Origin: an uncultured Opitutales bacterium
GTDB taxonomy: Bacteria > Verrucomicrobiota > Verrucomicrobiia > Opitutales > Intestinicryptomonadaceae
NCBI GenBank assembly: GCA_934613415.1
Contig: CAKTSY010000001.1
Location: 90,001 to 122,000, forward strand
Length of the DNA: 32,000 bases
Reading direction: 5' to 3'
Shown: positions 13,211 to 29,959 of the stretch, one piece after another
Layout: every line of letters begins with the position of its first letter
Numbering within the stretch: the stretch's first letter is position 1
Translations under genes and position numbers: made by a program
Notes under the pieces: generated by a model
Seen by the model: only the letters and a program-made list of their open reading frames with translations
Told to the model about the DNA's origin: nothing
Databases searched by the model: none

Positions 13211-13501
13211 CTATATTATCAACTCGCCTTCGGGATTATAGGTTTCGTTTTTGCCTATGGTATCTACTTTCTTTTCCCACTTATTGCCGGTCAAATAAAA
13301 TCTTACGCTATCGCGTTGCAAGTCTACAACTTCTTTTAGTTTAAGCTTTAGTTCGGTGTATTTCGTATTATCTACAACGCATTCGAACACCGAATTTTGC
13401 ACGCGTTGTCCGTAATTTTCGCATATTCGGGCAACGCGCCTTAAGCGAGTTTGCCCGCTTTTGGTTGCCGTTTCAACATCGTAAGTTACCACTACAAGCA
13501 T
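13211..13501 (-). CDS. cas2: CRISPR-associated endoribonuclease Cas2 (type I-C module)
   Basis: 96 aa. MLVVVTYDV...RLRRVARICENYGQRVQNSVFEC is the classical Cas2 ferredoxin-fold N-terminus. Confidence 0.9.
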   Translation of the reverse strand: MLVVVTYDVETATKSGQTRLRRVARICENYGQRVQNSVFECVVDNTKYTELKLKLKEVVDLQRDSVRFYLTGNKWEKKVDTIGKNETYNPEGELII

Positions 13502-13502
13502 A

Positions 13503-14525
13503 TTATATTAAAAATACGGGGTATCCGTCTAATTCACCGCGCAAGAATTTTGAAAACATCATAGCTTGCACATATCCCAATAAACCGATTGGCACTTTTT
13601 CGCCAATAAACGGGTGGATAATTTCTTCATGTTTTCGTTTTTGCCATACGCTTATAAAGTTTTTTCTAGCTTCGGGTTTTAATATAACCCCGCTGCCGCC
13701 GTTATCTATAAAATCTTCGGCAGCTACCATATTTTTATTTATTAAACTTAAAACAAATCTATCGGCCAAATACCCCCTAAACTCTTCCATTATATCCAAT
13801 GCCAAGCTTGCCCTACCCGGCCTGTCGGTATGGAAAAAACCAACGTAAGAATCTATGCCAACGCTTTCCAGCGCGCTTTGTATATCGCTTGCTAACAATG
13901 TATATGCAAACGAAAGAAGTGCGTTTACGTTGTCTTTTGGTGGGCGCCTAGTTCTGCCTTCAAACGAAAAGCCATTGCGTAAAATCAGCGAACCGAAAAC
14001 CGAAAAGTATACCCTAGAAGCATTGCCTTCTACCCCGCGCAACACATCTGTATTTTCGGCATTAAGCGCCTCGTGTTTTGCAAAATTTAGAATATTCGAT
14101 GCTTCTTTTACTTTTGCATAATCTAAAGATTCGGGATAATCGCGCAAAAAACGTTCAAGCACTTTTCTTGAATTTGAAATCTTTGCGGCAATTATAGACG
14201 AAGCAAGTTTAAGCGACATTTCCTTATTGTCTGCCAATCTATATTGCGCACGGCGAACCAACACGTTGCCGTTTGTTTTGCCCACCGAACGTGCCAAAAA
14301 GTACCCATTTTCGGACAAAAAAGATAGCCCTATTCCATATTTTGCACAAGCGTGCATTAATGCCGGGCTTGCCCCTGCGTATGAAAAAGTGATAATATTT
14401 TCGAGATTTACTAGCGGAATTTTAAGTTTTTCCTCTCCGCCAATTCTAACCGAAACACACTCTCCGTCGCGAGCCAACCAAGCATCAGAAGTCGTTACAT
14501 ATAGCGTATTTAAAAGCTTTCTCAT
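13503..14525 (-). CDS. cas1: CRISPR-associated integrase Cas1 (type I-C module)
   Basis: 340 aa. Has Cas1 motifs LNTLYV..., NALLSFAYTLL, GFFHTDRPGRASLALDIMEEFR. Confidence 0.9.
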   Translation of the reverse strand: MRKLLNTLYVTTSDAWLARDGECVSVRIGGEEKLKIPLVNLENIITFSYAGASPALMHACAKYGIGLSFLSENGYFLARSVGKTNGNVLVRRAQYRLADNKEMSLKLASSIIAAKISNSRKVLERFLRDYPESLDYAKVKEASNILNFAKHEALNAENTDVLRGVEGNASRVYFSVFGSLILRNGFSFEGRTRRPPKDNVNALLSFAYTLLASDIQSALESVGIDSYVGFFHTDRPGRASLALDIMEEFRGYLADRFVLSLINKNMVAAEDFIDNGGSGVILKPEARKNFISVWQKRKHEEIIHPFIGEKVPIGLLGYVQAMMFSKFLRGELDGYPVFLI

Positions 14526-15181
14526 AATTCCTTTAATTTATCGAGATATTTCGATACGCAGTTTTTTTGTTTTTCGGACTTTGGCAGGCAAATATCTATA
14601 AGCGAGCAAGAGCGACATTTGGCCGAATATTCTGCCGAAATTGAAGTAGCTTTCGAAAATGCCATATGCATTTTTGCGGAAATATCAAAAACCTTTTCGC
14701 GCAATTCCAAATCGAAAAAAACAGTGCGCCTTCGCGCTATTTTACCGTAATACAAGTCGCCGCTTTCAATTTTTGTTCTAAAAGCCTCTTCCAAACAAAT
14801 TGCCTGCGCACACAGCTGCACTTCGTCGCAAATGCCCAATTTTTCGGTGCCGTGTTTATACTCTATGGGGCGCATTGTCCACAAGCCGTCAAACCCGCCA
14901 ACGAGTACGCCACTTAAAGACTCGCTAAGTTCAACAACATCGCAAACGCCATATAACCCAAGCGATTTAGACGAAACCTGCAAACCGTTAAGTTGAATGC
15001 TATCGCCGCGTTTGCGGCTTTTTAGCGGGTTATCGACATTTCTGTGCAAATAGGCACCCTCAAGCGTTAACGAATTTTCGCTCCATGCCTGAAAAACGTG
15101 TATAAGCGCCCATTGCCGTTTGCAAAAGGCGAAATGCTGAATGCCCGAAAGCATCAGCATATCGTCTTCGGAATACTCCAT
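14522..15181 (-). CDS. cas4: Cas4 RecB-like exonuclease
   Basis: 219 aa. N-terminal Cys (FAFCKRQW) plus C-terminal CRSCSLIDIC, the 4-Cys Fe-S cluster pattern, with a RecB-like core. Overlaps cas1 by 4 nt. Confidence 0.85.
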   Translation of the reverse strand: MEYSEDDMLMLSGIQHFAFCKRQWALIHVFQAWSENSLTLEGAYLHRNVDNPLKSRKRGDSIQLNGLQVSSKSLGLYGVCDVVELSESLSGVLVGGFDGLWTMRPIEYKHGTEKLGICDEVQLCAQAICLEEAFRTKIESGDLYYGKIARRRTVFFDLELREKVFDISAKMHMAFSKATSISAEYSAKCRSCSLIDICLPKSEKQKNCVSKYLDKLKEL

Positions 15182-16002
15182 TATTTCTTTACTTCAATTT
15201 CAACACCGTTCGGAGCTTGTCCAACCGAAAACTCGTAATCGCTAAACGAACGAGCAGGAACAGACGGGTCTTTTTTTGCAATTTTTATTAAATCAAAAAG
15301 CTTGTAGGAAGGAGCATTTCCTAGTGCTGAACTATGCTTAAAAATCACAAGTTTTTTTACGCTCATAAGGCCTCGGGCAGCAGAGCGGTCGCTTTCGAAC
15401 ATATTAAGAATAGCCTCCCATAAAAGAGCAAGGTCATCTTCCGAAAAACCTGTTTGTTCGGCAAGAGCAGGCGAGATAAAGCCGTGTGCAACATACAACC
15501 CGTATGGAACTGTAGATTTGCGCCCCATTGTTTGGTCTTTCCCGTCGTGTGCAATACGCGTTATTGTATGTTCCGAATACAAAATTGGATCAACAGACCT
15601 TGAAAACGTAAGCTGTACGGGACCGCGAACTTGCCCGGCGTTGTTTCCGCTACCGCTAGTTAACACAGCGCCAAATGTCCTAACATCGAAAAATTTAGAA
15701 CAAAATTCACTACAATTTACAGCACTTTTTTTGCTTTTCTTATCTCCTGCATCAGATTGTTCTGTCGAACTGTCTGTCTCTATCAATTCAGATTTTTGTT
15801 TTATGTAAATATCGAACGGCGGAACGCATTTTTTTGTAAGTTGAACATAGTTTCTTATCTTGCGTTTAAGACATACATCGGTAACAAGCCCCATACCCGT
15901 TTCAGCATCTATACGGGGAAGATTACCAGCATCTGGGTCGCCATTCGGGTTGCCGTCAGCAACATCAAAAACTATGGCAAAATCGTACTTATTTTCTATC
16001 AT
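15181..16002 (-). CDS. cas7: Cas7 (Csd2), type I-C backbone subunit
   Basis: 273 aa. FDVADGNPNGDPDAGNLPRID...TDVCLKRKIRNY is the Csd2 signature. Confidence 0.9.
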   Translation of the reverse strand: MIENKYDFAIVFDVADGNPNGDPDAGNLPRIDAETGMGLVTDVCLKRKIRNYVQLTKKCVPPFDIYIKQKSELIETDSSTEQSDAGDKKSKKSAVNCSEFCSKFFDVRTFGAVLTSGSGNNAGQVRGPVQLTFSRSVDPILYSEHTITRIAHDGKDQTMGRKSTVPYGLYVAHGFISPALAEQTGFSEDDLALLWEAILNMFESDRSAARGLMSVKKLVIFKHSSALGNAPSYKLFDLIKIAKKDPSVPARSFSDYEFSVGQAPNGVEIEVKK

Positions 16003-17746
16003 TTTCGTTCTCCTTATTTTCTATTGTTTCGTTTTCTTCTTTAGATTTAAAAAATTCCTGTCTTTGGTGATAATAACCAATTGCAAAGCGCGATTGTTCG
16101 TCTAGCGATAGATGAGCCGGAAAGCCTGTAGCAGGTATTTTATCCATAATCTCGCTAATTGATTTTTTCAGAAAGATAACCGTTCCTTGATTAGCTATTT
16201 TCGACAAATGGTGATTCGACAAATCTATAAGGCGCCCAAACACAAGCATTGGAGTAGAGGAAGCTGAACCATAAAATCTGTCTACAATTGTAGCATTAAC
16301 GTTTTTCCCCAACGCCGATTCCTGTATACGCTCTAACACGGCAAAAAGCCTGCCGCAAAGGTAGCCTATATCGTTATTTTCAATATCTAATGACACTTTT
16401 ATTTCCCTTTCTTTACTATTCAATATTCTATTTTTTCTGTTTAAATATGCTTTTAAAATTGCAGCTCTAATGCGATTTATTATCCTATCTGCACGAATTC
16501 TATTCGTACATTGCATTTGAAGCGACTTAGGATACATTCCGCCCGAAAGAATTGCAGAAACTAGCCCGCCTTCAATATTTGGAGGAATATTTTCAATTTT
16601 GTTACCTTGCGATATACAAGTAAGTATGTTGAAAATCGAAAACAATTCACGGTCATAAGAACTGCGAATTATTTCAAAATCAGAAAAATGCTCCGCTATA
16701 CGCGCGCCTATTGCCTGTTCTGTGTCGGCAATAAAAAAGCGTACCACCATTCTTGCTTTGTTTGAACAAATCCCCAAAACAAAAAACTTTCGGTCTTCAA
16801 AAACTTGTTTGCGACCGCTAAACACCGACTTATAAAGTGCCGAAATTGACGAACTCCAAGCATCTGGATTGTCTTTTTTAGGTATGTCAAATAACGAACC
16901 AAAAACATTTTCAATTTCAGAGTTTTTTGAATCGCTCCAAAAAACTATCTGCAAATCGCCAATTCTAACATGGTTGGTTTTGCTAGCAAGCAAACTTGAT
17001 AGTGCCGCAGTATAAGCCGACTCGGCGTACAATGAAACAGGCGCATTTTCGCCCTGGTCTTTATAGTACGAATCATACCCGCTAGACGTCTGGAACGAAA
17101 CGAGTTTAACCCCCGCCGTTTTACCAATAGTAAAACCGCCGTGTGTCATAACCGGAGCAGTTTTTTCGCCCGTTATTAGGCAAATAAATTTTTGTCCATC
17201 GCTAGATGTGTTCATAGTTTTAGCGAGAAAATCGGCAACATCGGGATTTTCAACAACAAGTTCTTTACCGCAAATTTTAAATGTTACATTGCACCCTGCT
17301 TTCTTAGAGCACTTTTCCCACTCGCTCGCATTCTTTATTTCTTCAAGCCTATTAGGATTTTCCACAAACTTGCGCACCGCCAAAAAATCTTTATTGTTTG
17401 GGTACATTTCCGAAAGTTTTATAATTTTTTCGGCGAACGCTTTTGTCTTTTTCATTGCCGCTTTAACATCTTTTTCAGAATCGCTTTTGGGAAACCCAAA
17501 CACATATTCTATATTATCCCACAGCAAATTTGCATCAACATTGCTGCTTCGCCCATTATTTTTTGGAACGCACAAAACACGCCCGTTTTTAGCGGAATCT
17601 GAACGGGTATCTTCAAGCGCAACTAACTTGCCGTTTTCGTCTATTACCACTAAAAATGGAATGGCTTTGTCTTCAAACCCAAGCGGGGCAATCTCTCCGA
17701 GTTTACTTTTGCGCTGATAATAATCATACAATGCTTTAAGTATCAT
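15989..17746 (-). CDS. cas8c: Cas8c (Csd1), type I-C large subunit
   Basis: 585 aa. Csd1-like N-terminus MILKALYDYY. Lies between cas5 and cas7 with overlapping junctions. In characterised I-C systems a Cas11-like product arises from an internal start in this gene. The only in-frame ATG candidate I saw is at 16516..16514 (MQCTNR...), and this is unverified. Confidence 0.85.
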   Translation of the reverse strand: MILKALYDYYQRKSKLGEIAPLGFEDKAIPFLVVIDENGKLVALEDTRSDSAKNGRVLCVPKNNGRSSNVDANLLWDNIEYVFGFPKSDSEKDVKAAMKKTKAFAEKIIKLSEMYPNNKDFLAVRKFVENPNRLEEIKNASEWEKCSKKAGCNVTFKICGKELVVENPDVADFLAKTMNTSSDGQKFICLITGEKTAPVMTHGGFTIGKTAGVKLVSFQTSSGYDSYYKDQGENAPVSLYAESAYTAALSSLLASKTNHVRIGDLQIVFWSDSKNSEIENVFGSLFDIPKKDNPDAWSSSISALYKSVFSGRKQVFEDRKFFVLGICSNKARMVVRFFIADTEQAIGARIAEHFSDFEIIRSSYDRELFSIFNILTCISQGNKIENIPPNIEGGLVSAILSGGMYPKSLQMQCTNRIRADRIINRIRAAILKAYLNRKNRILNSKEREIKVSLDIENNDIGYLCGRLFAVLERIQESALGKNVNATIVDRFYGSASSTPMLVFGRLIDLSNHHLSKIANQGTVIFLKKSISEIMDKIPATGFPAHLSLDEQSRFAIGYYHQRQEFFKSKEENETIENKENENDRK

Positions 17747-18447
17747 CTTAAAATCTCCCCGCTGTTAGGATTCGGCACGTTCAATACGCCGTTTTCAAGC
17801 TTTGCTCTAAAAAACATAGGCATTGGGTTTTTCATATTTGTAAAATCCATATCAAAAAGCATTATACCCAAGTCGCGCGTTTCGGAGATTGGCAGACACA
17901 ACTCTTCACCTGGTGCAACCAGTTTAAAGTTTGCCGAAAATTCCCTGCAACCCAAATACGGAGTGGTAAAACATTGACCTTTTGACGCCCTGCGCTCGAA
18001 TATTGCATTATATTTTGCAGGGTTTTCGTCGGCTCTAAACAACCTATCTTCATCTGCATCTAAAAGTTTAGACTTTTTCTCTCGCGGCATTCGTTTGCCT
18101 ACGGGGATAAAATCAAGCTCTGCATAAATTCTATAGCGCACGTCTTTTAAAAACATTCCCGATTTTTGCTGGCGTTTGTCCTCAATAAATATGCCATCGT
18201 TTTTCGCTGAAGCTAGGGCCGCTACTTCGTTTCGTTTTACCGAAACCCATTTGATGGGAGATAAAACCTCTATGCGTTTTACTATCCAATTTATTGCGGG
18301 TTTCCAAAATATGGCTTGAAAAATATTTCTGGCTGCCGACGGCGTCATTACATCGTAGCTTACCCTCTCTACTTTTAATTCTGGGCGAGTAAAACACGCG
18401 TAATCGCCCCACACTTCTATGCAAAATTCTTTATTTCTATATTCCAT
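17743..18447 (-). CDS. cas5: Cas5c (Cas5d), pre-crRNA processing subunit
   Basis: 234 aa. CIEVWGDYACFTRPELKVERVSYDVMTPSAARNIFQAIFWKP is the typical Cas5d N-terminus. Confidence 0.9.
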   Translation of the reverse strand: MEYRNKEFCIEVWGDYACFTRPELKVERVSYDVMTPSAARNIFQAIFWKPAINWIVKRIEVLSPIKWVSVKRNEVAALASAKNDGIFIEDKRQQKSGMFLKDVRYRIYAELDFIPVGKRMPREKKSKLLDADEDRLFRADENPAKYNAIFERRASKGQCFTTPYLGCREFSANFKLVAPGEELCLPISETRDLGIMLFDMDFTNMKNPMPMFFRAKLENGVLNVPNPNSGEILR

Positions 18448-18454
18448 AATATCA

Positions 18455-20701
18455 CTATACCATTAAAATATCGTTTAACACTTTATTATCTATTGTCAAT
18501 CCCATTTTTTCAGAATACAAAGTAGAATCTTTTAAAACGTATATACCGTTAAAATCTGCTATTTGCCCCATCGCCAAAGCGTCTTTAAGTTGAGATTTCC
18601 TAACCGAAACGCAATAGCGGCGAAGCTTGCGAAAGAAACGCGAATCTCCCAAATATCCGTCGCAAATGCGTTTGCACAAATCGGCTCCGTCGCGGTACGG
18701 AACAATAACTTCAGCACAATCGCTAGCGTCTATTAAACGAAAATTTTGGGCAGCCGTTTCAAATTGAAACTCGCCGTTGCAAGCACATTTAACAAGCAAA
18801 TCATAAATTTCTGGCTTATCAAAATTATTACATTTACCAAAAAAACATTCGAAATACTTTGCCACAACTTTGCGCGAATCTAATGCCTCGTTTTTACAAC
18901 AAAGAATAGTTTCGTTAAGTGCTTTCGCTCCACTGTATATAAAACCTAAATTAACCGGTTTTTTTGTTTTAAACACATAAACATTTCCATACTCTTTGCG
19001 CCCTTCGCGGTTGCAGCGACCAGCCGCTTGGATAATGCTGTCTAGCCCGGCATATTCTCTAAACACTTCTGGGAAATCCAAATCTACCCCCGCCTCTACA
19101 AGCTGCGTGGAAACCACACGCGTGCACTTTCCTAAAGCAAGAGATGCTTTGATTTCAGCTAAAACATCATCTATGTGAGCCGTGCACATCGACCGCGAAA
19201 GATGAAATGCGCTTTCGTCGTTTAACTTAGAAAATATTTCGGCAGCATGAGCGCGAGTGTTGCATATGCATAAGAATGAACCTGTGCGCAAATGCAAGTA
19301 ATCGGCAAAATCTGCAAGTTCAAATTCGCCTTCAATTAAATTAAATTTTGTACGCCTAAACGCAGCCTGCAATTCATCGCAATTTTTAATAATCTCTTGC
19401 ACATTTTTTATCGGAGAATCAAAGGCGGTAATGTTAGAACCAATTTTACCCGAAAATACGGGCTGGGTTGCGGTGCAAAACAGCACAGTAGCTCCGCCAA
19501 TTTTTACAAAAGCATCTAACCCCCATAGAATGGGTTTTAAAAAATCGGTAGGCAACATTTGCGCTTCGTCTAAAATTATAACGCTTTTGCAAATATTATG
19601 AAGTTTGCGCGTGCGCGACGACAAATTTGCGTACATAGACTCAAACAACTGTACATTTGTTGTAACAACAATCGGCGCGTCCCAATTTTCAGAGGCTAAG
19701 CGCGCCGCAGTAGGCTGTTCATTTTCGTCGAACAGCTTGTCTGGCTCAACATTAGAATGATGTTCTAAAACATTTTCGTCTCCAAAAATTTTTCTGTATT
19801 GTGCCGCCGTCTGCGAAATTATGCTAGTGTATGGAATTGCTACAATTACGCGCTTCTTGTCGTTTTTAACTGCAAATTTCAAAGCCCATAAAATCTACGC
19901 AAGTGTTTTACCTCCACCGGTGGGAACGCTAAGTGAAAAGTAGCTGCCTGTATAATTTTCTGCAGCATTGGAACATGTTTCATCTATGCCACAGCGCAAA
20001 CGGTTAATAGGCGTATCTGGAGAATTTTCAAAAAGCGTTTTTAAATGCAATTGCAATCGTTCTAGTAAAACTTCCAACGAATCGAACTTGCCTCGCTCCC
20101 TATCTGAATAGAAAAATTTTTCTGTATCTAAATAGTCTGCATCAACAAGAGCCGAAAACATAAGCCTTACAAGCATATTAATTGAAGACTTACTGACATC
20201 TATACCCTTAAAACTTTCTAATGGCGGAATTTTATTTTCTAAAAAGAATTGTTTGGCTCTATTGGCTACTAAATCTAAACATTCTTTTTTTTCAAGACGC
20301 GAATTTTTAACGCTATAATCTTGAAGCCCAGAATGGTGCCCTGCCGAAAGATAGTCTAGAATCGGCATTTTGTTGGTTGCGGCATATATAGCCCCAGCTG
20401 TCGAGTGGTCTACCGAGCCTTTGCGGTTTTTAGGGTCAGCGGACTTCTCGAAAACAGCGGCACGAATATATTTTTGAAAAGCATCAGAAAATTTCCCTAT
20501 ATCGTGAATCAGCCCAGCAGCATAACCCCAATTCTTGCAACCAAAAGATTCTGCAAATTCTGCGGCAAGCAAAGCTACACCCTTTAAATGATCGGGCAAT
20601 AAATGATAATAAGCCTTTTTCTCATCATCACTATCAAGCTTTATGTGCGCCACAAAATCGTTCATATTTCTAAAGCTATAATAATATTTTTTGATTGTCA
20701 A
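18455..20701 (-). pseudogene. cas3: cas3 (HD nuclease + SF2 helicase) interrupted by one in-frame TAG
   Basis: The HD motifs (HLLPDHL, GLIHDIGK) and Walker A (VPTGGGKTLA) end at TAG 19897..19895. The same frame continues ILWALKFAVKNDKKRVIVAIPYTSII... through helicase motifs (DEAQ, CTATQP). There is no frame shift. TAG terminates other genes in this window. Confidence 0.8.
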
Positions 20702-20802
20702 TTACTTTTCAAAAAAAAATGTACAAAACAAAATATTCAAAATTCATATTCACATTTTTACCAACTACTTGCACCGAATTTGTTTGTTTTTTTCAAAAAA
20801 AG

Positions 20803-21066
20803 TCACCTCTTAATTGCCAAGCAACTTGAAAAAAAATATATATCATTGCTTGACAAGATTAAATGAATCCGAAAATTTCTTTTAGATAGATGGAAATTAT
20901 CTAATTGCCCACGGTTTTTTGTGGTGTCATGACAATAATTCCCATTCAAGAAAGCTTCCTTTGTTCCGTGGAAATTTCCCATGCTACTTTGGAAGCTTTC
21001 CCTATCTATTTCTGTGGGATAAATTTTTCGCGGGATACAGCCATTTATTAATATCTTTGCTTGCAT
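20803..21066 (-). CDS. Hypothetical 87-aa ORF between the I-C array and cas3
   Basis: The ATG is preceded by GAAGGAG (3-4 nt spacing). No motif recognised. The 3' third overlaps an AT-rich inverted-repeat element and may be non-coding. Confidence 0.2.
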   Translation of the reverse strand: MQAKILINGCIPRKIYPTEIDRESFQSSMGNFHGTKEAFLNGNYCHDTTKNRGQLDNFHLSKRNFRIHLILSSNDIYFFSSCLAIKR

Positions 21067-21108
21067 TTGCTCCTTCGATTATTTGCCTCCCCTCATAAGA
21101 CAATATTT

Positions 21109-22191
21109 CATGAGATTCACGCGCCAACGAGGGGCGCGACACGGCTCATTCTTGCTGAAATTGCCCTCAATGCGTTTCAATTCACGCGCCCGCGAGGGGC
21201 GCGACGGCTTTGAATGTATCGTATGCCGATTGTGTTACGTTTCAATTCACGCGCCCGCGAGGGGCGCGACTTTGTCTTGGTCTTTTTCGTCCGCTGCAGA
21301 CTTTTGTTTCAATTCACGCGCCCGCGAGGGGCGCTACCAGGGAGACTGGGCTGTTTGCTCGCAACGTTTTGGTTTCAATTCACGCGCCCGCGAGGGGCGC
21401 GACTCTGCGGTTTCATGTAATCAGTTGCGTCCATTTTATGTTTCAATTCACGCGCCCGCGAGGGGCGCGACAATGGTAGCGCAGGGAAAAGGAGCGCGAA
21501 GAGACGTTTCAATTCACGCGCCCGCGAAGGGCGCGACCGACGAGGACGAGTATTTTGCCGACTACGAGCAGGTTTCAATTCACGCGCCCGCGAGGGGCGC
21601 GACGGTATGGCTATATCAATCGGCGGCGTAATGGTGTTTCAATTCACGCGCCCGCGAGGGGCGCGACCTCGTAGTATTCCCTTTCGGGCACCCTTATAGG
21701 GGTTTCAATTCACGCGCCCGCGAGGGGCGCTACCAGATGAGCGTTTTGTGATGTGTGGTTATTGTGGTTTCAATTCACGCGCCCGCGAGGGGCGCGACGC
21801 TATGATAAAGCATTTTAATGACGTATTTGTAGTTTCAATTCACGCGCCCGCGAGGGGCGCGACTGCTTACAAGCCAGATTCCTATAGATAGCACAGTGTT
21901 TCAATTCACGCGCCCGCGAGGGGCGCGACTTGCCATAAAACAAAGAAGAACATTGGCAGAATCAGTTTCAATTCACGCGCCCGCGAGGGGCGCGACATTG
22001 GACTTGGGCGAGGGCAATGTATTGTTGATGTTTCAATTCACGCGCCCGCGAGGGGCGCGACGCACTTGATAGGCTATTAAAGAGAGGAGAAAACGTTTCA
22101 ATTCACGCGCCCGCGAGGGGCGCGACTACATCATCCGCCGATTATTCATTGGCACTCAAGTTTCAATTCACGCGCCCGCGAGGGGCGCGAC
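21109..22191 (-). CRISPR. Type I-C CRISPR array: 17 repeats of 32 bp, 16 spacers of 32-36 bp
   Basis: The repeat in crRNA sense is GTCGCGCCCCTCGCGGGCGCGTGAATTGAAAC, the canonical I-C stem plus ATTGAAAC tail, so transcription is on the minus strand. The leftmost repeat (21109-21140) has 7 mismatches, marking the distal end. Repeats at 21306 and 21702 carry the same G>T variant, and the repeat at 21506 carries a G>A variant. Confidence 0.97.
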
Positions 22192-23488: not shown

Positions 23489-23589
23489 TTGACTTTTGCG
23501 GCGTTATTTTAACCTTTAATTTAGACACTTGAGAAGCGTTGCCGTTATTCGCTACGGACTTGAACACGTTATCAAGTGTCTCTTTTTTT
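23489..23589 (+). ncRNA. Paralogous structured unit A (candidate small RNA)
   Basis: TTGACTTTTGC box. Outer stem AGACACTTGA/TCAAGTGTCT (10 bp). Inner hairpin CCGT/ACGG. Invariant CTTGAAC (23559-65). Ends CTTTTTTT. Confidence 0.4.
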
Positions 23590-23773
23590 GCACAAATATA
23601 AAAATTTCTTATACCGCAAAATTTTTCTTGATAAAAAAGAATTTATAAAACCTAGTTTATGTGGGCTTTCGCGGGGTTGTGCCAGATTAACAATGCCGTC
23701 TTTTTATATCTAAAATGTTGCATTGCAAACATTTGCATTTTCTTTTATTCTTACAAACCGCCAACAATACGTC

Positions 23774-23873
23774 TTAACTTTTGCAAACCATTTTTCAAGC
23801 ATACACTAAGACGCTTACGATATTGCCCCTTAAGTGGTGGTCTTGAACATATCCTTAAGCGTCTCTTTTGTTT
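23774..23873 (+). ncRNA. Paralogous structured unit B (candidate small RNA)
   Basis: TTAACTTTTGC box. Outer stem AGACGCTTA/TAAGCGTCT (9 bp). Inner hairpin GCCCC-TTAAGT-GGTGGT. CTTGAAC (23842-48). Ends CTTTTGTTT. Confidence 0.4.
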
Positions 23874-23908
23874 ATACAGACAAAAGCCCTACACATAAAA
23901 AATTTTAT

Positions 23909-24009
23909 TTGACTTTTACAAACGGTATTTCGACTATATTGCCCGACGCTTGGGAGGCGCGCCCTTAAGTGGGCGTCTTGAACGCCCCTTCAAGCGTCTC
24001 TTTTGTTTT
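23909..24009 (+). ncRNA. Paralogous structured unit C (candidate small RNA)
   Basis: TTGACTTTTAC box. Outer stem GACGCTTG/CAAGCGTC (8 bp). Inner hairpin GCGCCC-TTAAGT-GGGCGT. CTTGAAC (23977-83). Ends TCTTTTGTTTT. Confidence 0.4.
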
Positions 24010-24056
24010 GTTAAAGTTTTCTGTTTTACATGCAACAGCATCGTTTGTGAATAAAC

Positions 24057-24180
24057 AAAAAAATTGGGCCAAACAAATGTTTGGCCCTTATTTGGTGGAC
24101 ATAAGTCCTTGTTAACGGATATGTATTTTGCAATACAACAGGGTTTTACCCCAGACACCGTTCTTTGATTTCTACAAACT
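24057..24180 (-). ncRNA. Candidate tracrRNA of the II-C system (strand assignment provisional)
   Basis: Positions 24160-24177 are identical to 18 nt of the minus-sense repeat, so they are complementary to the array's plus strand. The minus-strand transcript would read UUUGUAGAAAUCAAAGAACGGUGUC..., then hairpins UGUAUU-GCAA-AAUACA and GGAC-UUAU-GUCC, then a 9-bp GC-rich terminator GGGCCAAAC-AUUU-GUUUGGCCC followed by AAUUUUUUU. Confidence 0.6.
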
Positions 24181-24295
24181 CCCATTAATGAGAGTGTATG
24201 CAACCTTTCACAGAAAAAATATTTTGTCAATATTTTTATTGCATTTATTCTATAAATATTTTATATGTCAAATAAAGTTTAAACAATATAAATAT

Positions 24296-27200
24296 ATGAG
24301 CGATAAGAAAGTTTTAGGTTTTGATATGGGTGCAAATTCGATTGGCTGGTGTATGCAGTTAATAAATAACGAATGTAAAACCGTTGATATACTAGGAATG
24401 GGGACAAGAATTTTCGACAATTCGAGAGACCCTAAAACCAATGTTCCATTATCCGTAAAAAAGCGTATGGTTAATGCGGCGTCCGTACGGCGAAATCGAC
24501 AAATTATGCGCACAAAAAACGTATGCAAAATTCTCAGAAAATTCGGGTTATTACCAAAAGACGAAAAAAGTAGTGTATCCAAACGAAACCCATATAAACT
24601 AAGGGCAAAAGCAGTAAAAGAAAAGATAGATTTATTCGGCATAGGTCGCATTATTTTACATATAAATAAGCGCAGAGGCTTCAAATCTAACCGTAAAATA
24701 GATAAACGCGCCGACGACAAAGAAACCAAAGGGATGAAGGCCGGCATATCTAGACTGCGCGAAATGCTAAAAGATAAAACTCTGGGCGAATTTTTATACG
24801 AGAGAAAAATTGCAGGTAGTTCGGTAAGAATGAGGGCCAATGTAATAAAAAACAAAAATGAATATGAGATATATGCCGAACGCGATATGTACGAAACAGA
24901 ATTGGCAAAAATATGGGAGACACAAAAGAAATTTCACCCTTGCCTAACAGACGACATGTACAGGGAAATATCTAACGCAGTATTTTTCCAACGTCAATTA
25001 AAAGTTCCCGAAAGAGGCTTTTGTCAATTTGAACATACAGAACACCGCGGGTATAAAGCATATCCTATTTTCCAAAAGTTTAGAATTTTGCAGGAGATTA
25101 ATGCACTAGAAATTATTGATATCAATGCAAGCAATGAAAATAAGCTTTCTGTTGAAGAGAAACAAAAACTGGCAAATGCCCTACTTTACAACGACAATAA
25201 ACTTGTTGATAAAAAACAATTTGCAAAATTTTCCAAAATCAAAAAATTTTTAAATATACCCGATACATTTAGTTTTAATTTCGAAAGCGAGAATCGCAAA
25301 GGACTCTATGGCAATTTAACAGATGCTGTTATGGCATCAAACAAATGTTTCGGCGAAAGTTGGCGTAATATAGACGATACAATTAGAGAAAAATTGATAG
25401 ACCTTGTAATGGCTGACAATGAACAAGGATTCATTGCATTGTGTTTTGAACACTTTAAAATAGAAAAAGAAGAGGCAAAAAATATCCTTAATGAATGCTT
25501 TGATTTAACCGACGGAACCGCATCGTTATCTTCATTGGCTATGCATAAAATTGTTCCTTTTTTAGAAAAAGGCGAATTATACCACAATGCTTGTGCCTTA
25601 GCTGGCTATGATTTTAACGTCAATTATAATGGCGAAAAATTCGACGAACTGCCATATTATGGGAAAATTTTAAAAACCGCCGTACTTGGTGGAAATCCAA
25701 ACTTCGATCCCGAGACATTCCCAGAAAAGCACTATGGAAAAATCAATAATCCCACCGTACACGTTGCACTAAATCAGTTACGCAAACTCTACAACAAAAT
25801 TATTTCTGTTTATGGGAAACCAGACAGAATTGTAATTGAAACTGCCAGAGAATTACCTATGGGGCAAGAATCGTTAAAAGGTCTCCTTTCGGAACAAAAA
25901 GAAAATACAAAAAAGAACAAGGAAATTGCCGAAAAATTAAAAGAATTAGGAGAATCCAACACCCCAGAAAACAGAATGAAATATAAGTTGTGGGAAGACC
26001 TAAGCGAGGATATTGCAAAAAGAATTTGTCCGTTTTGTGGAGAAAAGAAAATTGAGGCAAAAAATTTATTTACACCGGAATTTGAAATAGAGCATTTATT
26101 GCCATTTTCCGAAACTTTTGACGATTCGAGGGCAAACAAAGTAATTTCTTGCGCTAGCTGCAATAGAGTTTTTAAAGGACAACGCACACCCTACGAAGCA
26201 TTTGCAAACCGCGAAAAATATAGTTGGGATGGAATCATGGCAAGAGTATCTTTGATGCCAAAGTCAAAACAATGGAGATTCCGCCCAGATGCAATGGAAA
26301 TATTCCGCGAAAAATACGGTGACTTTACTCAACGTATGCTAAACGACACAAGATATATGTCGAAAGTTGCAAGAGAATATTTTACCTCAGTAATTGACGC
26401 GAATAATATTATTACCGTTCCAGGGCAAATTACTGCAATGTTGCGAAAGGAATGGGGGTTAAATGACATATTAAGACCCACTCCTCTAACGGAAAGCAAT
26501 AAGCAAGACAAAACGCTAATGGAAATTGTCAGCGAAACAACAACAGAAAATGATGAGGATGAATCTGACGAAGACAGCGACAAAACGAAAGGCAAAAAGA
26601 AATACCGCGGAGATAATAGACACCATGCAATAGACGCATTTGTAATTTCTTCAGTCAACCGCAACTTAATATCAAAAATTTCAGAAGCATCTAAGATGGC
26701 TGAAAAAGCTGGTTTAAATGATTTGTTAAAACAAATTCCAAAACCATTTTCAACTAACTATATAACTTACGATACTTTTAGAAAAAAAGTTTTATCAATA
26801 GTAGTTTCGCATAAGCTTGATAGAGGTGATGTAAAAACAGCGATAAAAAACCATAAAACTGTTGCGAAATTACACAACGATACAGCATTGGGGAAAATTG
26901 GCAACGAAATTGACGGAAAAATAACAATTGTAAAACGTGTGCCTTTAAATTCCATAGAATGCACAGATAAAGATATATCGGAAATCGCAACGCCAAAAAT
27001 TCGCAATGAACTTTTAAGCATATACGAATCGATATATTCAGATTCAAGCATTAAAGATTTGCCTGAGAAAAAACAAAAAAATGCGATAAAGGATATGTGG
27101 GCAAAAAAGTTAGATGAATACTGCAATGCCAATAAGATTAGACGTGTTAGAATACATATAAAAAACCGTGAAATAAAAAAGCTTGTTCCTATTGCAGACA

Positions 27201-27598
27201 AAAACGGTGTTATCTATAAGTATATGGAAAATGCTGAATCGTATTGTATGGACATATATGATACAGGAAGCGGCAAATGGCAATTTGAGGTTATAAATAT
27301 GTTCGATGCCCATAAAAACAAAATGCCCCAATGGAGAAAAAACAATCCCCACGCAAAACTTATTATGCGTTTGTTTAAACGCGACGCGATTGCCTACGAG
27401 GAAAACGGCGAATATAAAATTGCTATAATTAAGAATGTAGCTACTCACGGACAGATAGGCATTCTTCCGCCAAGCGTTGCAAAAGTTGATGGCAATGTTC
27501 CAAAAAAAATTCCATCTGCCTTACAAGAATTGAACGCTCGCAAAGTTTATATAGATGAAATTGGCCGCGTATTTGACGCTTACAAAAATAAGAAATGA
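24296..27598 (+). CDS. cas9: Cas9, type II-C (1100 aa from MSDKKVLGFDMG)
   Basis: RuvC-I GFDMGANSIGW. RuvC-II IVIETAREL. HNH EIEHLLPFSETFDDSRANKV...NRVFKGQRTPYEAF. RuvC-III NRHHAIDAFV. Arg-rich bridge helix RRNRQIMRTKN. Followed directly by cas1 and cas2, with no csn2 or cas4. Confidence 0.95.
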   Translation: MSDKKVLGFDMGANSIGWCMQLINNECKTVDILGMGTRIFDNSRDPKTNVPLSVKKRMVNAASVRRNRQIMRTKNVCKILRKFGLLPKDEKSSVSKRNPYKLRAKAVKEKIDLFGIGRIILHINKRRGFKSNRKIDKRADDKETKGMKAGISRLREMLKDKTLGEFLYERKIAGSSVRMRANVIKNKNEYEIYAERDMYETELAKIWETQKKFHPCLTDDMYREISNAVFFQRQLKVPERGFCQFEHTEHRGYKAYPIFQKFRILQEINALEIIDINASNENKLSVEEKQKLANALLYNDNKLVDKKQFAKFSKIKKFLNIPDTFSFNFESENRKGLYGNLTDAVMASNKCFGESWRNIDDTIREKLIDLVMADNEQGFIALCFEHFKIEKEEAKNILNECFDLTDGTASLSSLAMHKIVPFLEKGELYHNACALAGYDFNVNYNGEKFDELPYYGKILKTAVLGGNPNFDPETFPEKHYGKINNPTVHVALNQLRKLYNKIISVYGKPDRIVIETARELPMGQESLKGLLSEQKENTKKNKEIAEKLKELGESNTPENRMKYKLWEDLSEDIAKRICPFCGEKKIEAKNLFTPEFEIEHLLPFSETFDDSRANKVISCASCNRVFKGQRTPYEAFANREKYSWDGIMARVSLMPKSKQWRFRPDAMEIFREKYGDFTQRMLNDTRYMSKVAREYFTSVIDANNIITVPGQITAMLRKEWGLNDILRPTPLTESNKQDKTLMEIVSETTTENDEDESDEDSDKTKGKKKYRGDNRHHAIDAFVISSVNRNLISKISEASKMAEKAGLNDLLKQIPKPFSTNYITYDTFRKKVLSIVVSHKLDRGDVKTAIKNHKTVAKLHNDTALGKIGNEIDGKITIVKRVPLNSIECTDKDISEIATPKIRNELLSIYESIYSDSSIKDLPEKKQKNAIKDMWAKKLDEYCNANKIRRVRIHIKNREIKKLVPIADKNGVIYKYMENAESYCMDIYDTGSGKWQFEVINMFDAHKNKMPQWRKNNPHAKLIMRLFKRDAIAYEENGEYKIAIIKNVATHGQIGILPPSVAKVDGNVPKKIPSALQELNARKVYIDEIGRVFDAYKNKK

Positions 27599-28518
27599 AA
27601 GAATGCCAAATAGTTGAAATTGAAAACGATGCTAGATTTATTGGCGTCGAACGCGGTTTTTTAGTTATAAAAAATTTAGGAACAGAAATTGGCCGTATAC
27701 CGCTTGATTCTATTTGTGCCGTAGTTTGCACCGCAAACTATGGCACAGTAAGTACACAAACAATATCTGCTTTGTCGGAATATAATATACCGCTTGTTGT
27801 ATGCAACAAACGTACAAAAACGCCAACTTGCGTGCTAATTCCTTTAGCCTACAATTGGCGTCAAGGCGATATAATGGAGGCGCAAGCTTTTTGCACTCAT
27901 AGCAAAAAGAAACTAGTTTGGAAAACCATTGTAAAAGCAAAACTTTTACAACAATCTCAAGTTTTAAAATATTTAAATAAACCTTTTGAATTAATTAAAA
28001 ACTTATCTGATATGGTTAAAGCAGGCGACCCCGAAAATATTGAAGGCAGAGGTGCAAACGCATATTGGAAAATATTGATGGGACAATCTTTTAGGCGCAA
28101 TAGGGACGACGAAAACGAAAATATATTATTTAATTATGGTTATACAATTTTACGAGCGGCAACAATAAGAGCAATTTGTGCTGCCGGTTTAAACCCAAGC
28201 ATTGGGGTACACCACTGCTCTTCTACAAACCAAGCCAGACTAGCAGACGATTTAATGGAATCGTTTAGACCTTTTGTAGACATAAAAGTTTTTGAAATTT
28301 GCCAAGACGGCGACTCGGAACTTAACAAAGAAAATAAGAAAAAATTAAGTTCGGTTTTAACGGATAGGTATTTTAGAAAAGAAAAAATAACGAGCGTTCA
28401 ACAAATGCTGTACGACACCGCTATAGATTTTGCAAAGTTTTGCTCAAACGAAATAACAGAATTTAAAATCGATATAGTAAAAAGCAAAAACCTATGCAAT
28501 ACGAACAATGGAACTTAG
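27595..28518 (+). CDS. cas1: Cas1 (type II module)
   Basis: 307 aa. The ATG overlaps the cas9 stop (ATGA). Motifs NILFNYGYTILRAATIRAI and GVHHCSSTNQARLADDLMESFRP. Confidence 0.9.
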   Translation: MKECQIVEIENDARFIGVERGFLVIKNLGTEIGRIPLDSICAVVCTANYGTVSTQTISALSEYNIPLVVCNKRTKTPTCVLIPLAYNWRQGDIMEAQAFCTHSKKKLVWKTIVKAKLLQQSQVLKYLNKPFELIKNLSDMVKAGDPENIEGRGANAYWKILMGQSFRRNRDDENENILFNYGYTILRAATIRAICAAGLNPSIGVHHCSSTNQARLADDLMESFRPFVDIKVFEICQDGDSELNKENKKKLSSVLTDRYFRKEKITSVQQMLYDTAIDFAKFCSNEITEFKIDIVKSKNLCNTNNGT

Positions 28519-28837
28519 TGGTTATAAACTTATGTGGATGATGGTTATGTTTGATTTACCGACGGCTACAACCCAAGAACGCAAACAGTACTCGGATTTC
28601 AGAAATATGCTATTGGATAATGGGTTTAGTATGTCCCAATACTCGGTATATTTTAGATTTTGCGGAGAAAGAGAATGTTGCGCAAAATATGTCAGAAAAA
28701 TAAAGATGTCGGCTCCGCCAGAAGGAGATATTTCAATATTGTTTTTTACGGATAAACAATTTGGACAAATTATAAACATAATAAAAAGAAAATTTGTTAG
28801 ACCTAAGAATACACCCGAACAATTACAACTTTTTTAA
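28508..28837 (+). CDS. cas2: Cas2 (type II module)
   Basis: 109 aa. LMWMMVMFDLPT...FRNMLLDNGFSMSQYSVYFRFC is typical of type II Cas2. Overlaps the cas1 end. Confidence 0.85.
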   Translation: MELSGYKLMWMMVMFDLPTATTQERKQYSDFRNMLLDNGFSMSQYSVYFRFCGERECCAKYVRKIKMSAPPEGDISILFFTDKQFGQIINIIKRKFVRPKNTPEQLQLF

Positions 28838-28848
28838 AGCATAAAAAA

Positions 28849-28885
28849 ACTCCCATAATCTTCAAAAAAATGGGAGTTTTTATTT
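28849..28885 (+). terminator. Terminator after the II-C cas operon
   Basis: Stem ACTCCCA (28849-55) / TGGGAGT (28871-77) followed by TTTTTATTT. Confidence 0.6.
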
Positions 28886-28934: not shown

Positions 28935-29959
28935 ATTGTAGAAATCAAAGAACTGTAGTCAATCCGCAACAAATATTATGAAATACTATATTGTAAAAAA
29001 ATTGTAGAAATCAAAGAACTGTAGTCAATCCGCAACACCTTGGGTGCTCAATTCGAAAACCCAATTATTGTAGAAATCAAAGAACTGTAGTCAATCCGCA
29101 ACCGACAAGCACAATTACAAAGGGCAAATGGAATTGTAGAAATCAAAGAACTGTAGTCAATCCGCAACGATATTTCTTTTTTGTTATCGGCTACTTTGAT
29201 TGTAGAAATCAAAGAACTGTAGTCAATCCGCAACCAACATAACCCGTTCGACATTGATACTGTCATTGTAGAAATCAAAGAACTGTAGTCAATCCGCAAC
29301 TGAAAAAATGAACACAAATTTAGATATAAATTGTAGAAATCAAAGAACTGTAGTCAATCCGCAACAACAGGCAGTTTTCGTTTACCGCCTGCGAGATTGT
29401 AGAAATCAAAGAACTGTAGTCAATCCGCAACGTTATCGAGGACTATGACAAGCAACAAATTATTGTAGAAATCAAAGAACTGTAGTCAATCCGCAACGTT
29501 ATCGAGGACTATGACAAGCAACAAATTATTGTAGAAATCAAAGAACTGTAGTCAATCCGCAACCAAGTATAAATTTTATTCGCTGTGGCAGCGATTGTAG
29601 AAATCAAAGAACTGTAGTCAATCCGCAACCTATGTACAGAACACCCGTCCGGGAGATACATTGTAGAAATCAAAGAACTGTAGTCAATCCGCAACGAACG
29701 TGCACTACATAAAGCAACAAAACAGATTGTAGAAATCAAAGAACTGTAGTCAATCCGCAACCGAAGAACCTAAGGTTGAATTTTTGTCGCAATTGTAGAA
29801 ATCAAAGAACTGTAGTCAATCCGCAACTTATAAGCTTGTTGACGTTGTTTTAGTATTATTGTAGAAATCAAAGAACTGTAGTCAATCCGCAACTCATTTT
29901 TTGCTTGACGCCCCTTTTTAAAAATTGTAGAAATCAAAGAACTGTAGTAATTTCAGAAA
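28935..29959 (-). CRISPR. Type II-C CRISPR array: 16 repeats of 36 bp (last one degenerate), 15 spacers of 29-30 bp
   Basis: Plus-strand repeat ATTGTAGAAATCAAAGAACTGTAGTCAATCCGCAAC. Minus-sense repeat GTTGCGGATTGACTACAGTTCTTTGATTTCTACAAT. The repeat at 29924-29959 keeps only the first 25 nt in plus sense. Spacers 8 and 9 are identical. The minus orientation is preferred (TTGACT-N16-TACAAT in every repeat; ends in TACAAT like Neisseria II-C repeats) but is not proven. Confidence 0.95.

Follow-up and report, generated by a model that had tools for sequence, protein, structure and literature searches.

In the type II-C CRISPR–Cas arrays of Neisseria and Campylobacter, CRISPR RNAs (crRNAs) start inside each spacer. 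The crRNA promoters of Neisseria meningitidis are reportedly embedded in the repeats, making its crRNAs independent of processing, and the crRNAs of the Campylobacter type II-C systems are said to initiate in the same way inside each spacer. The guides of Cas9, in which the repeat part of the crRNA pairs with the anti-repeat of a trans-activating crRNA (tracrRNA), reportedly follow a canonical module scheme of lower stem, bulge, upper stem, nexus and 3' hairpins. Engineered single-guide RNA (sgRNA) scaffolds such as SAM / sgRNA 2.0 carry aptamer hairpins in the tetraloop and in stem-loop 2. Here we describe a type II-C locus in a stretch of 32,000 nucleotides (nt) from an uncultured Opitutales bacterium of the Verrucomicrobiota (assembly GCA_934613415.1, contig CAKTSY010000001.1, positions 90,001 to 122,000); the whole stretch is called the window below, and its first letter is position 1. 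A minus-strand region from about 24196 to 24057 (~140 nt), divergent from cas9, very probably encodes the tracrRNA of this adjacent Cas9, with an anti-repeat that is split by two hairpins, HP1 and HP2, forming a four-way junction with the crRNA:tracrRNA duplex.

The locus resembles that of N. meningitidis (Nme) in the order cas9–cas1–cas2–array, in its 36-nt repeats and 30-nt spacers, in crRNAs that appear to be read towards the cas genes from a promoter in each repeat, and in a repeat that starts with GUUG and ends with TACAAT (Nme: TGCTACAAT); the two tracrRNAs also share a lower stem, AA junction, GG nexus and terminator. Unlike in Nme, the −35 element TTGACT lies inside the repeat as well, the tracrRNA gene is located upstream of cas9 and is divergent from it, and two tracrRNA hairpins stand in place of the internal loop of the duplex. 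The window Cas9 matches the Nme structures weakly (phmmer E ~1e-52 over residues 5-725). As in SAM / sgRNA 2.0, extra hairpins are combined with an intact lower stem and nexus; however, the hairpins of those scaffolds are artificial and sit at helix tips protruding from Cas9, whereas those described here are natural, conserved and placed between the lower and upper stems.

The canonical module scheme of tracrRNAs and sgRNAs has been laid out by Faure et al. 2018 (PMC6546382), who describe the nexus as a hot spot for insertions. All modules of this scheme are found in the window, in canonical order, but in place of the few unpaired nt of a bulge, the tracrRNA strand carries a 33-nt module of two hairpins. 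A structured insertion in the main bulge is not described in the tracrRNA surveys 10.1101/2020.09.02.279885, PMC7606464 (with supplements) and PMC6546382, and phrase searches of the accessible literature on Cas9 guides yielded nothing relevant on a split, interrupted or bipartite anti-repeat or on a four-way junction, which is not proof of novelty. In Rfam, no family reached the gathering threshold, and only sub-threshold chance matches were obtained in 23900-24320. Apart from its tracrRNA, a new structural variant, the type II-C system is an ordinary one.

Results

An anti-repeat split by two hairpins

An initial annotation, made from the letters of the window alone, had placed the only anti-repeat at 24160-24177, with 18 perfect pairs on repeat positions 18-35, in a candidate divergent from cas9. 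Each of these observations was reproduced: the match to nt 18-35 of the minus-sense repeat (GTTGCGGATTGACTACAGTTCTTTGATTTCTACAAT) is exact over 18/18 nt (blastn-short, E 1e-5), it is situated 119 nt upstream of cas9, and it is the sole significant match in the 32-kb window outside the array, the next best being only 10 nt long (E 0.6). A second anti-repeat segment, AUCCGUUAAC at 24120-24111, had nevertheless been overlooked. In the co-fold computed with RNAcofold, this segment (AUCCG-U-UAAC) pairs with repeat nt 1-9 (GUUGCGGAU) through nine pairs and one bulged U, while repeat nt 18-35 are paired perfectly with the upper segment and repeat nt 11-16 imperfectly with its GGUGUC part. As AUCCGUUAAC pairs with repeat nt 1-9 and is followed by AA, the GG nexus and the terminator, the spacer-proximal lower stem is canonical, and its arrangement is that of the general trend in type II guides, in which the lower stem is followed by AA and then by a nexus stem beginning with GG (PMC6546382).

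The lower segment starts 33 nt beyond GGUGUC, and these 33 nt (24153-24121) are predicted to fold as two hairpins on the tracrRNA side, which would turn the duplex's internal loop into a four-way junction. It is this conserved two-hairpin insertion, splitting the anti-repeat, that is the unusual feature of the predicted guide. The annotation had instead paired the 17 spacer-proximal nt of the repeat only via GGUGUC and three terminal pairs, or alternatively with UUGCAA. The first pairing is contradicted by the co-fold and by 12 related tracrRNAs, in which repeat nt 1-9 are paired; the second fails because UUGCAA is the apical part of HP2, the loop of which is GCAA in the window and UUCG, GAAA, GUAA or UUUU in relatives. 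The guide scaffold is therefore atypical, as had been stated, in its insertion, and canonical in its spacer-proximal half (9 bp, one bulged U).

The region has what is expected of a tracrRNA gene, namely an anti-repeat outside the array, a lower stem–AA–GG nexus series (UAAC-AA-GGAC-UUAU-GUCC) that the 13 clade sequences and the outgroup share, and a Rho-independent terminator. The minus-strand hairpins and strong GC terminator noted before are confirmed, the latter as a 9-bp GC-rich stem (6 G-C pairs) followed by the U-run AATTTTTTT, at 24087-24057. What distinguishes it is the bulge between lower and upper stems, which is typically small and unstructured and here consists of 33 nt folded as two hairpins; we therefore treat this tracrRNA as a variant and not as a plain member. 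At the level of sequence, the assignment of this RNA to the 1100-aa Cas9 stands, with all modules in order and adjoining cas9.

Strand of the crRNAs and of the tracrRNA

The promoter-like motif TTGACT-16-TACAAT is present on the minus strand in all 15 perfect repeats, each an identical 10/12 match to the promoter consensus (a consensus match only), and similar elements occur in the repeats of relatives, for example TTGACG...TATAAT in L009. The promoter scan found 18 sites in total, compared with 4.5 ± 1.9 expected from shuffles. By consensus match, this is the arrangement of the Neisseria/Campylobacter type, with a promoter within each repeat on the crRNA-sense strand. Since the motif lies on the minus strand of every repeat, the crRNAs are, on this promoter evidence, minus-sense, with GUUGCGG directly after the guide. 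Protospacers were sought so that crRNA polarity could be read from the side of the protospacer-adjacent motif, and six spacers compared as 24-mers with IMG/VR gave zero matches.

The free minus-strand RNA from 24196 to 24057 folds with −42.3 kcal/mol (z = −4.23; 0/200 shuffles as good), whereas the plus-strand alternative is no better than shuffled sequence (z = +0.16). Co-folding with the repeat in both orientations, which the annotation had proposed as a check, gave −69.6 kcal/mol for the minus strand versus −41.5 kcal/mol for the plus strand (RNAcofold). In addition, the insertion is more stable in the minus sense than as its reverse complement in 12/12 sequences, and 21 G-U pairs in total occur in the minus-sense minimum free energy (MFE) folds of the 5'-terminal hairpin HP0, of the insertion and of the 3' tail. 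Together, the repeat promoters, the AA-GG nexus, the U-tract terminator, the G-U pairs, the z-scores and conservation to 37% Cas9 identity decide the question of strand in favour of minus; the conflict in the strand evidence that had been reported earlier dissolves, as all strand-specific evidence is minus.

Conservation of the insertion among related loci

Scanning the GTDB representative genomes with the window Cas9 gave 21 related loci, the closest in metagenome-assembled genomes (MAGs) of Opitutales and Verrucomicrobiota. Identities in the protein search fall in a step, with a close group at 45-63% to the window Cas9 (P0002-P0016) and the rest at 40% or less. Contigs were retrieved for members of the close group, and metagenome contigs were also scanned for the conserved lower-stem and nexus motif. 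The Cas9s of the clade measure 1049-1100 aa. Public assemblies include 20 contigs with a Cas9 identical to that of the window, some of them from human gut samples (for example, the Hadza set); three of three such contigs that were retrieved have a window-identical tracrRNA.

Alignment with the tracrRNAs of orthologues, also proposed earlier, was informative. In the close group, two hairpins lie between the upper and lower anti-repeat in all 13 distinct tracrRNAs recovered (W, the window, and L001, L003, L004, L024, L030, L025, L026, L027, L028, L029, L033 and L039); L002 and L038 yielded none, their contigs breaking off near the array or near cas9. The hairpins differ in sequence. In relatives, the HP2 stem is UGCGCU/GGCGCA, UGCGAU/AUCGCA, UGCGUC/GACGCA, CGCACC/GGUGCG, UAUGC/GCAUA, GUUCGCC/GGCGGAC, UGUGC/GCACA or GUGGGC/GCUCAC, the HP1 loop is GCAA, GUAA or UUCG, and the loops of the insertion are frequently GNRA or UNCG tetraloops.

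From an unguided MAFFT alignment of 10 of the 11 repeat-GAAA-tracrRNA fusions, RNAalifold recovered the same six helices as the single folds (below), with compensatory changes at 19 of 53 pairs. Paired cells amounted to 95.8%, compared with 87.4 ± 0.8% in column shuffles (0/500 reach the observed value), and fell to 37-51% when the 3' partners were slid by 1-3 columns; the covariation score was 0.324 versus 0.156 in shuffles (0/500). Changes on both sides affect all six pairs of HP2 and three of the four of HP1. In the terminator, 6/8 pairs are compensatory, and the U-tract is on the minus strand in all relatives; in the upper stem, 97% of cells are paired and 3 pairs have compensatory changes in the alignment, with an extra A-U to G-C change in L039. 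Folded singly as repeat-GAAA-tracrRNA fusions, 11/11 sequences adopt the same four-way junction in their MFE folds, followed by the nexus and terminator. By these patterns of substitution, the two-hairpin insert is kept by compensatory change across Cas9 divergence down to 45% identity.

The sister group (L005-L019), which serves as an outgroup, comprises gut alphaproteobacterial MAGs, Acetobacter sp. CAG:977, Kangiella and Marinicella, with Cas9 identities of 40% or less. Its members, including relatives at 37-39% Cas9 identity, share with the window promoter-bearing repeats, the place and orientation of the tracrRNA gene, and its lower stem, AAG-nexus and terminator. Their tracrRNAs are canonical, with a ~20-bp upper stem, a UUU/UUU loop, the lower stem GUUGCGG:CCG(U/C)UAAC (CCGYUAAC), an AAG-nexus and a terminator. 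In contrast to the window clade, the position of HP1 and HP2 is taken by a loop of only 3-4 nt (UUU or CUUU). In L008, the lower stem is GUUUUGG:CCAAUAAC, in which C5-G became U5-A, a compensatory change. The split anti-repeat with two hairpins is an unusual guide-RNA design that is common to a clade of gut-bacterial Cas9s.

Promoter and 5' end of the tracrRNA gene

A TTGAC(A/T) motif in tracrRNA orientation precedes the anti-repeat by 45-50 nt in 11/11 clade loci, L003 among them. In L003 and L023, the tracrRNA gene has been relocated to the far side of the array and the motif with it, so that the motif belongs to the tracrRNA unit. A good −10 element exists in the loci of some relatives (TCTAAT). 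The predicted transcription start coincides with the conserved 5' hairpin HP0, equivalents of which, differing in sequence and with covarying stems, are found in all clade members (L001-L039); none was seen in the outgroup tracrRNAs looked at. HP0 may protect the 5' end of the primary transcript or may stack on the end of the duplex.

The two relocated genes belong to a sublineage with Cas9 ~60% identical to that of the window. Here, the tracrRNA unit, including TTGACA and the 5' hairpin, lies beyond the cas-distal end of the array (~10800-10960 in L003; ~8800-8925 in L023), still in crRNA orientation and abutting a truncated, promoter-only repeat. The repeat of L002 is the same as that of this sublineage.

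Features of the locus and its surroundings

The features of the type II-C locus are collected in Table 1. RuvC and HNH nuclease domains are present in the Cas9 according to Pfam, and its matches in the PDB are all Cas9, with the N. meningitidis entries 6JDQ and 6KC8 among the closest solved structures and 9AR4 and 8UZA also among the top Cas9 entries. Consistent with type II-C, the adaptation genes of the operon are cas1 and cas2 only, without csn2 (type II-A) or cas4 (type II-B); cas9, cas1 and cas2 overlap or abut and the array follows directly. The cas4 of the window is part of a separate type I-C operon on the other strand. The array ends on its cas-distal side with a degenerate repeat (29924-29948), and a hairpin between cas2 and the array is probably, from its T-runs, a bidirectional terminator that separates the convergent cas and crRNA transcripts.

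Table 1. Coordinates of the predicted tracrRNA elements and of the type II-C genes and array in the window
Feature	Position	Strand	Description and basis
Putative −35 element of the tracrRNA promoter	24224..24229	−	TTGACA; conserved TTGAC(A/T) in clade loci
HP0, 5'-terminal hairpin	24179..24194	−	CUCUCA-UUAA-UGGGAG, directly upstream of the anti-repeat; same position in all clade tracrRNAs
Upper anti-repeat	24154..24177	−	18 nt (24177-24160) plus GGUGUC (24159-24154)
HP1, first inserted hairpin	24139..24153	−	UGGGG-UAAAA-CCCUG region; predicted in every clade member
HP2, second inserted hairpin	24122..24137	−	UGUAUU-GCAA-AAUACA; covariation, 10 sequences
Lower anti-repeat	24111..24120	−	AUCCGUUAAC (AUCCG-U-UAAC), partner of repeat nt 1-9; co-fold, invariant in the clade
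AA junction and nexus hairpin	24097..24110	−	AA (24110-24109), GGAC-UUAU-GUCC; matches the rule of PMC6546382
Linker and terminator	24057..24096	−	Linker ACCAAAUAA, hairpin GGGCCAAAC-AUUU-GUUUGGCCC, then AAUUUUUUU; terminator scan
cas9	24296..27598	+	1100 aa, type II-C, Nme-like; Pfam RuvC_III (2.4e-22), HNH_4 (5.2e-16), Cas9_a
cas1	27595-28518	+	Pfam Cas_Cas1
cas2	28508-28837	+	Pfam CRISPR_Cas2
Hairpin between cas2 and array	28850..28876		CTCCCAT-N13-ATGGGAG, T-runs on both strands; read from sequence
CRISPR array	28935..29948	−	15 perfect 36-nt repeats and a truncated 16th (terminal); 30-nt spacers

Two adjacent spacers of the type II-C array (29432-29461 and 29498-29527) are identical (GTTATCGAGGACTATGACAAGCAACAAATT); therefore, one repeat-spacer unit was duplicated. 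Another spacer (29301-29329) is 29 nt long instead of 30. In Cas9, residues 730-761 (window 26483-26578) form a 32-residue, highly acidic low-complexity insert (PLTESNKQDKTLMEIVSETTTENDEDESDEDS) in the RuvC-III region, which is absent in most of the closest relatives.

The window also holds a complete type I-C system on the minus strand (13211-22191), with cas2, cas1, cas4, cas7, csd1/cas8c and cas5. Its cas3 is apparently split into an open reading frame (ORF) with the HD domain (19895-20701, 268 aa) and a helicase ORF (18455-19882, 475 aa). Its array (21306-22191, repeat GTTTCAATTCACGCGCCCGCGAGGGGCGCGAC) is on the cas3 side of the operon and not after cas2. The gap between the two CRISPR systems (23556-24008) is free of genes and contains two repeated units of ~100 nt (23774-23873 and 23909-24008), 70% identical, and a third copy of their 3' part (23556-23589). 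Both long units begin with a −35-like TTAACT or TTGACT, and all three copies end in a long hairpin and CTCTTTTGTTT, so that they look like small plus-strand transcription units, possibly small RNA genes. From 23900 onwards, where the region was scanned permissively, no Rfam match at threshold was obtained.

Discussion

We propose that transcription of each crRNA would begin from a sigma-70-type promoter that lies in the repeat before it, and that the tracrRNA would consist, in order, of HP0, a ~24-nt upper anti-repeat, HP1 and HP2 (33 nt), a 10-nt lower anti-repeat, AA, the GG nexus, a linker and an intrinsic terminator. Repeat nt 1-9 would form the canonical Cas9-bound lower stem and repeat nt 11-35 a long upper stem (~24 bp), a likely substrate of RNase III. 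HP1 and HP2 would take the place of the tracrRNA strand of the internal loop, normally 3 nt long, giving a four-way junction. On the crRNA strand, only U10 is left unpaired between the two stems, which therefore probably stack on each other in the manner of ordinary guides; the hairpins would project from the position of the bulge and would be a structural module of the Cas9 scaffold particular to this clade.

Several points weigh against this reading. We infer the transcription, 5' end and processing sites of the tracrRNA, and a strong sigma-70 −10 element was not found in the window, where the candidate AAGGTT matches at 2/6 positions; because of this poor −10 element, the tracrRNA promoter is a putative one, with only its −35 element convincing. 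The pairs were counted in an alignment of only 10 sequences, mutually related, in which repeat and tracrRNA were joined by an artificial GAAA loop. Repeat nt 10-17 pair imperfectly, and in different ways from locus to locus, which makes the exact geometry of the junction uncertain. The lower stem is invariant in the clade, and the case for its pairing comes from thermodynamics, its place beside the AA-GG nexus and a single compensatory change, found in the outgroup (L008). In the free tracrRNA, both the MFE and the centroid folds contain a 5-bp helix, AACGG (in 24154-24159):CCGUU (in 24111-24120), that brings HP1 and HP2 together in a three-way junction; this modelled conformation might be a pre-loading state before crRNA binding. 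Finally, no domain-sized insertion specific to the clade that could match the hairpins was found in Cas9, the clade-specific differences being two of 4-5 aa (residues 762-766 and 914-917).

Two other accounts of the region can be set against a minus-strand tracrRNA. If the array and the tracrRNA were transcribed in the direction of cas9, the anti-repeat would pair with repeat nt 2-19 beside the guide, so that the perfect duplex would adjoin the spacer, and an A/U hairpin would act as terminator; a degenerate repeat at the cas-distal end, such as that at 29924-29948, would also be expected of a plus-sense array with a leader on the cas2 side. In that orientation, however, the co-fold is weaker by 28 kcal/mol, the region folds like shuffled sequence, and the nexus and terminator are absent downstream, while the AA-GG nexus, U-tracts, G-U pairs and repeat promoters are all minus-sense. 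The hairpin AAAAATATT-TTGTC-AATATTTTT (24216-24238), which the initial annotation had offered as the plus-strand terminator, was rejected: its centre is the conserved minus-strand TTGACA at 24229-24224, and it is not conserved as a hairpin in relatives. We consider transcription from the plus strand hardly credible. It is also highly improbable, if marginally less so, that the region is a degenerate solo repeat or a regulatory RNA resembling small CRISPR–Cas-associated RNA (scaRNA), with the true tracrRNA outside the 32-kb window. The genome span inspected was 32 kb, and additional repeat-like small RNAs can reportedly occur in type II loci (PMC6199352); nevertheless, every tracrRNA module is present in the right order, the window is without another anti-repeat, and wherever a tracrRNA was recovered from a related locus, the unit remains linked to either cas9 or the array, even after relocation (L003 and L023).

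Given a minus-strand tracrRNA with a split anti-repeat, the role of the hairpins can be explained in different ways. In one reading, to which we give somewhat less than even odds, HP1 and HP2 are an obligatory, clade-specific recognition module, such that the Cas9s of this Opitutales-centred clade would read a four-way junction in place of the bulge. They could instead be a neutral, tolerated insertion, solvent-exposed and dispensable for binding and cleavage by Cas9, which UUU could replace equally well. This would agree with the variable sequences of stems and loops, of which foldability alone is conserved, with the lack of a clade-specific Cas9 domain insertion alongside the hairpins, with an outgroup that presumably functions with a 3-nt loop, and with presumably harmless inserts known from other tracrRNA loops, such as the 18-nt nexus insert of streptococci (PMC6546382). 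From a neutral insertion, however, decay or loss in some lineages would be expected, whereas compensatory substitutions maintain both hairpins in 13/13 distinct tracrRNAs and neither is lost in any of those recovered; stable GNRA/UNCG tetraloops recur, and the flanking junction nt (G-U between the hairpins, U/A before AUCC) are nearly invariant. Neutrality seems rather unlikely to us. An improbable further alternative is that the module serves chiefly in the folding or regulation of the free tracrRNA, where an AAYGG:CCGUU helix joins the halves of the anti-repeat and masks the lower one until pre-crRNA invades via the exposed 5' anti-repeat. The presence of this closing helix in the free fold, which leaves the first ~15 nt of the anti-repeat unpaired, would suit this role, as would the GG that follows GAA(C/U) in the tracrRNA and is invariant even though its crRNA partners, nt 16-17, vary (CA, CC, UC, UG, UU, CG). 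Yet the helix has just 5 bp, it is incompatible with the far more stable crRNA-bound state and hence at best transient, it offers no covariation test because both of its sides are invariant, and it leaves the keeping of two hairpins instead of one unexplained.

Whatever the role of the hairpins, the split anti-repeat must be known if a working sgRNA is to be built for this clade. Standard sgRNA design joins ~16 nt of the repeat to a contiguous anti-repeat (for example, PMC7606464). Applied to this clade, it would take the upper stem alone and drop or misplace the true lower stem, and the resulting guide would probably be dead. The corrected scaffold is directly testable for these compact gut-derived Cas9s of 1049-1100 aa. 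If the hairpins are an obligatory module, the guides of the clade would be orthogonal to those of its nearest relatives, and the hairpin tips would be a natural, previously unused site for grafting large structured RNA; another possibility is that the hairpins recruit an additional factor, from the host or a phage. The bulge that separates the lower stem from the upper one is considered critical to the function of SpCas9 guides. Here, a natural lineage has this bulge replaced by a conserved four-way junction, without an obvious matching insertion in the protein, which makes it a good system for asking what Cas9 needs at the bulge and how guide RNA and protein co-evolve.

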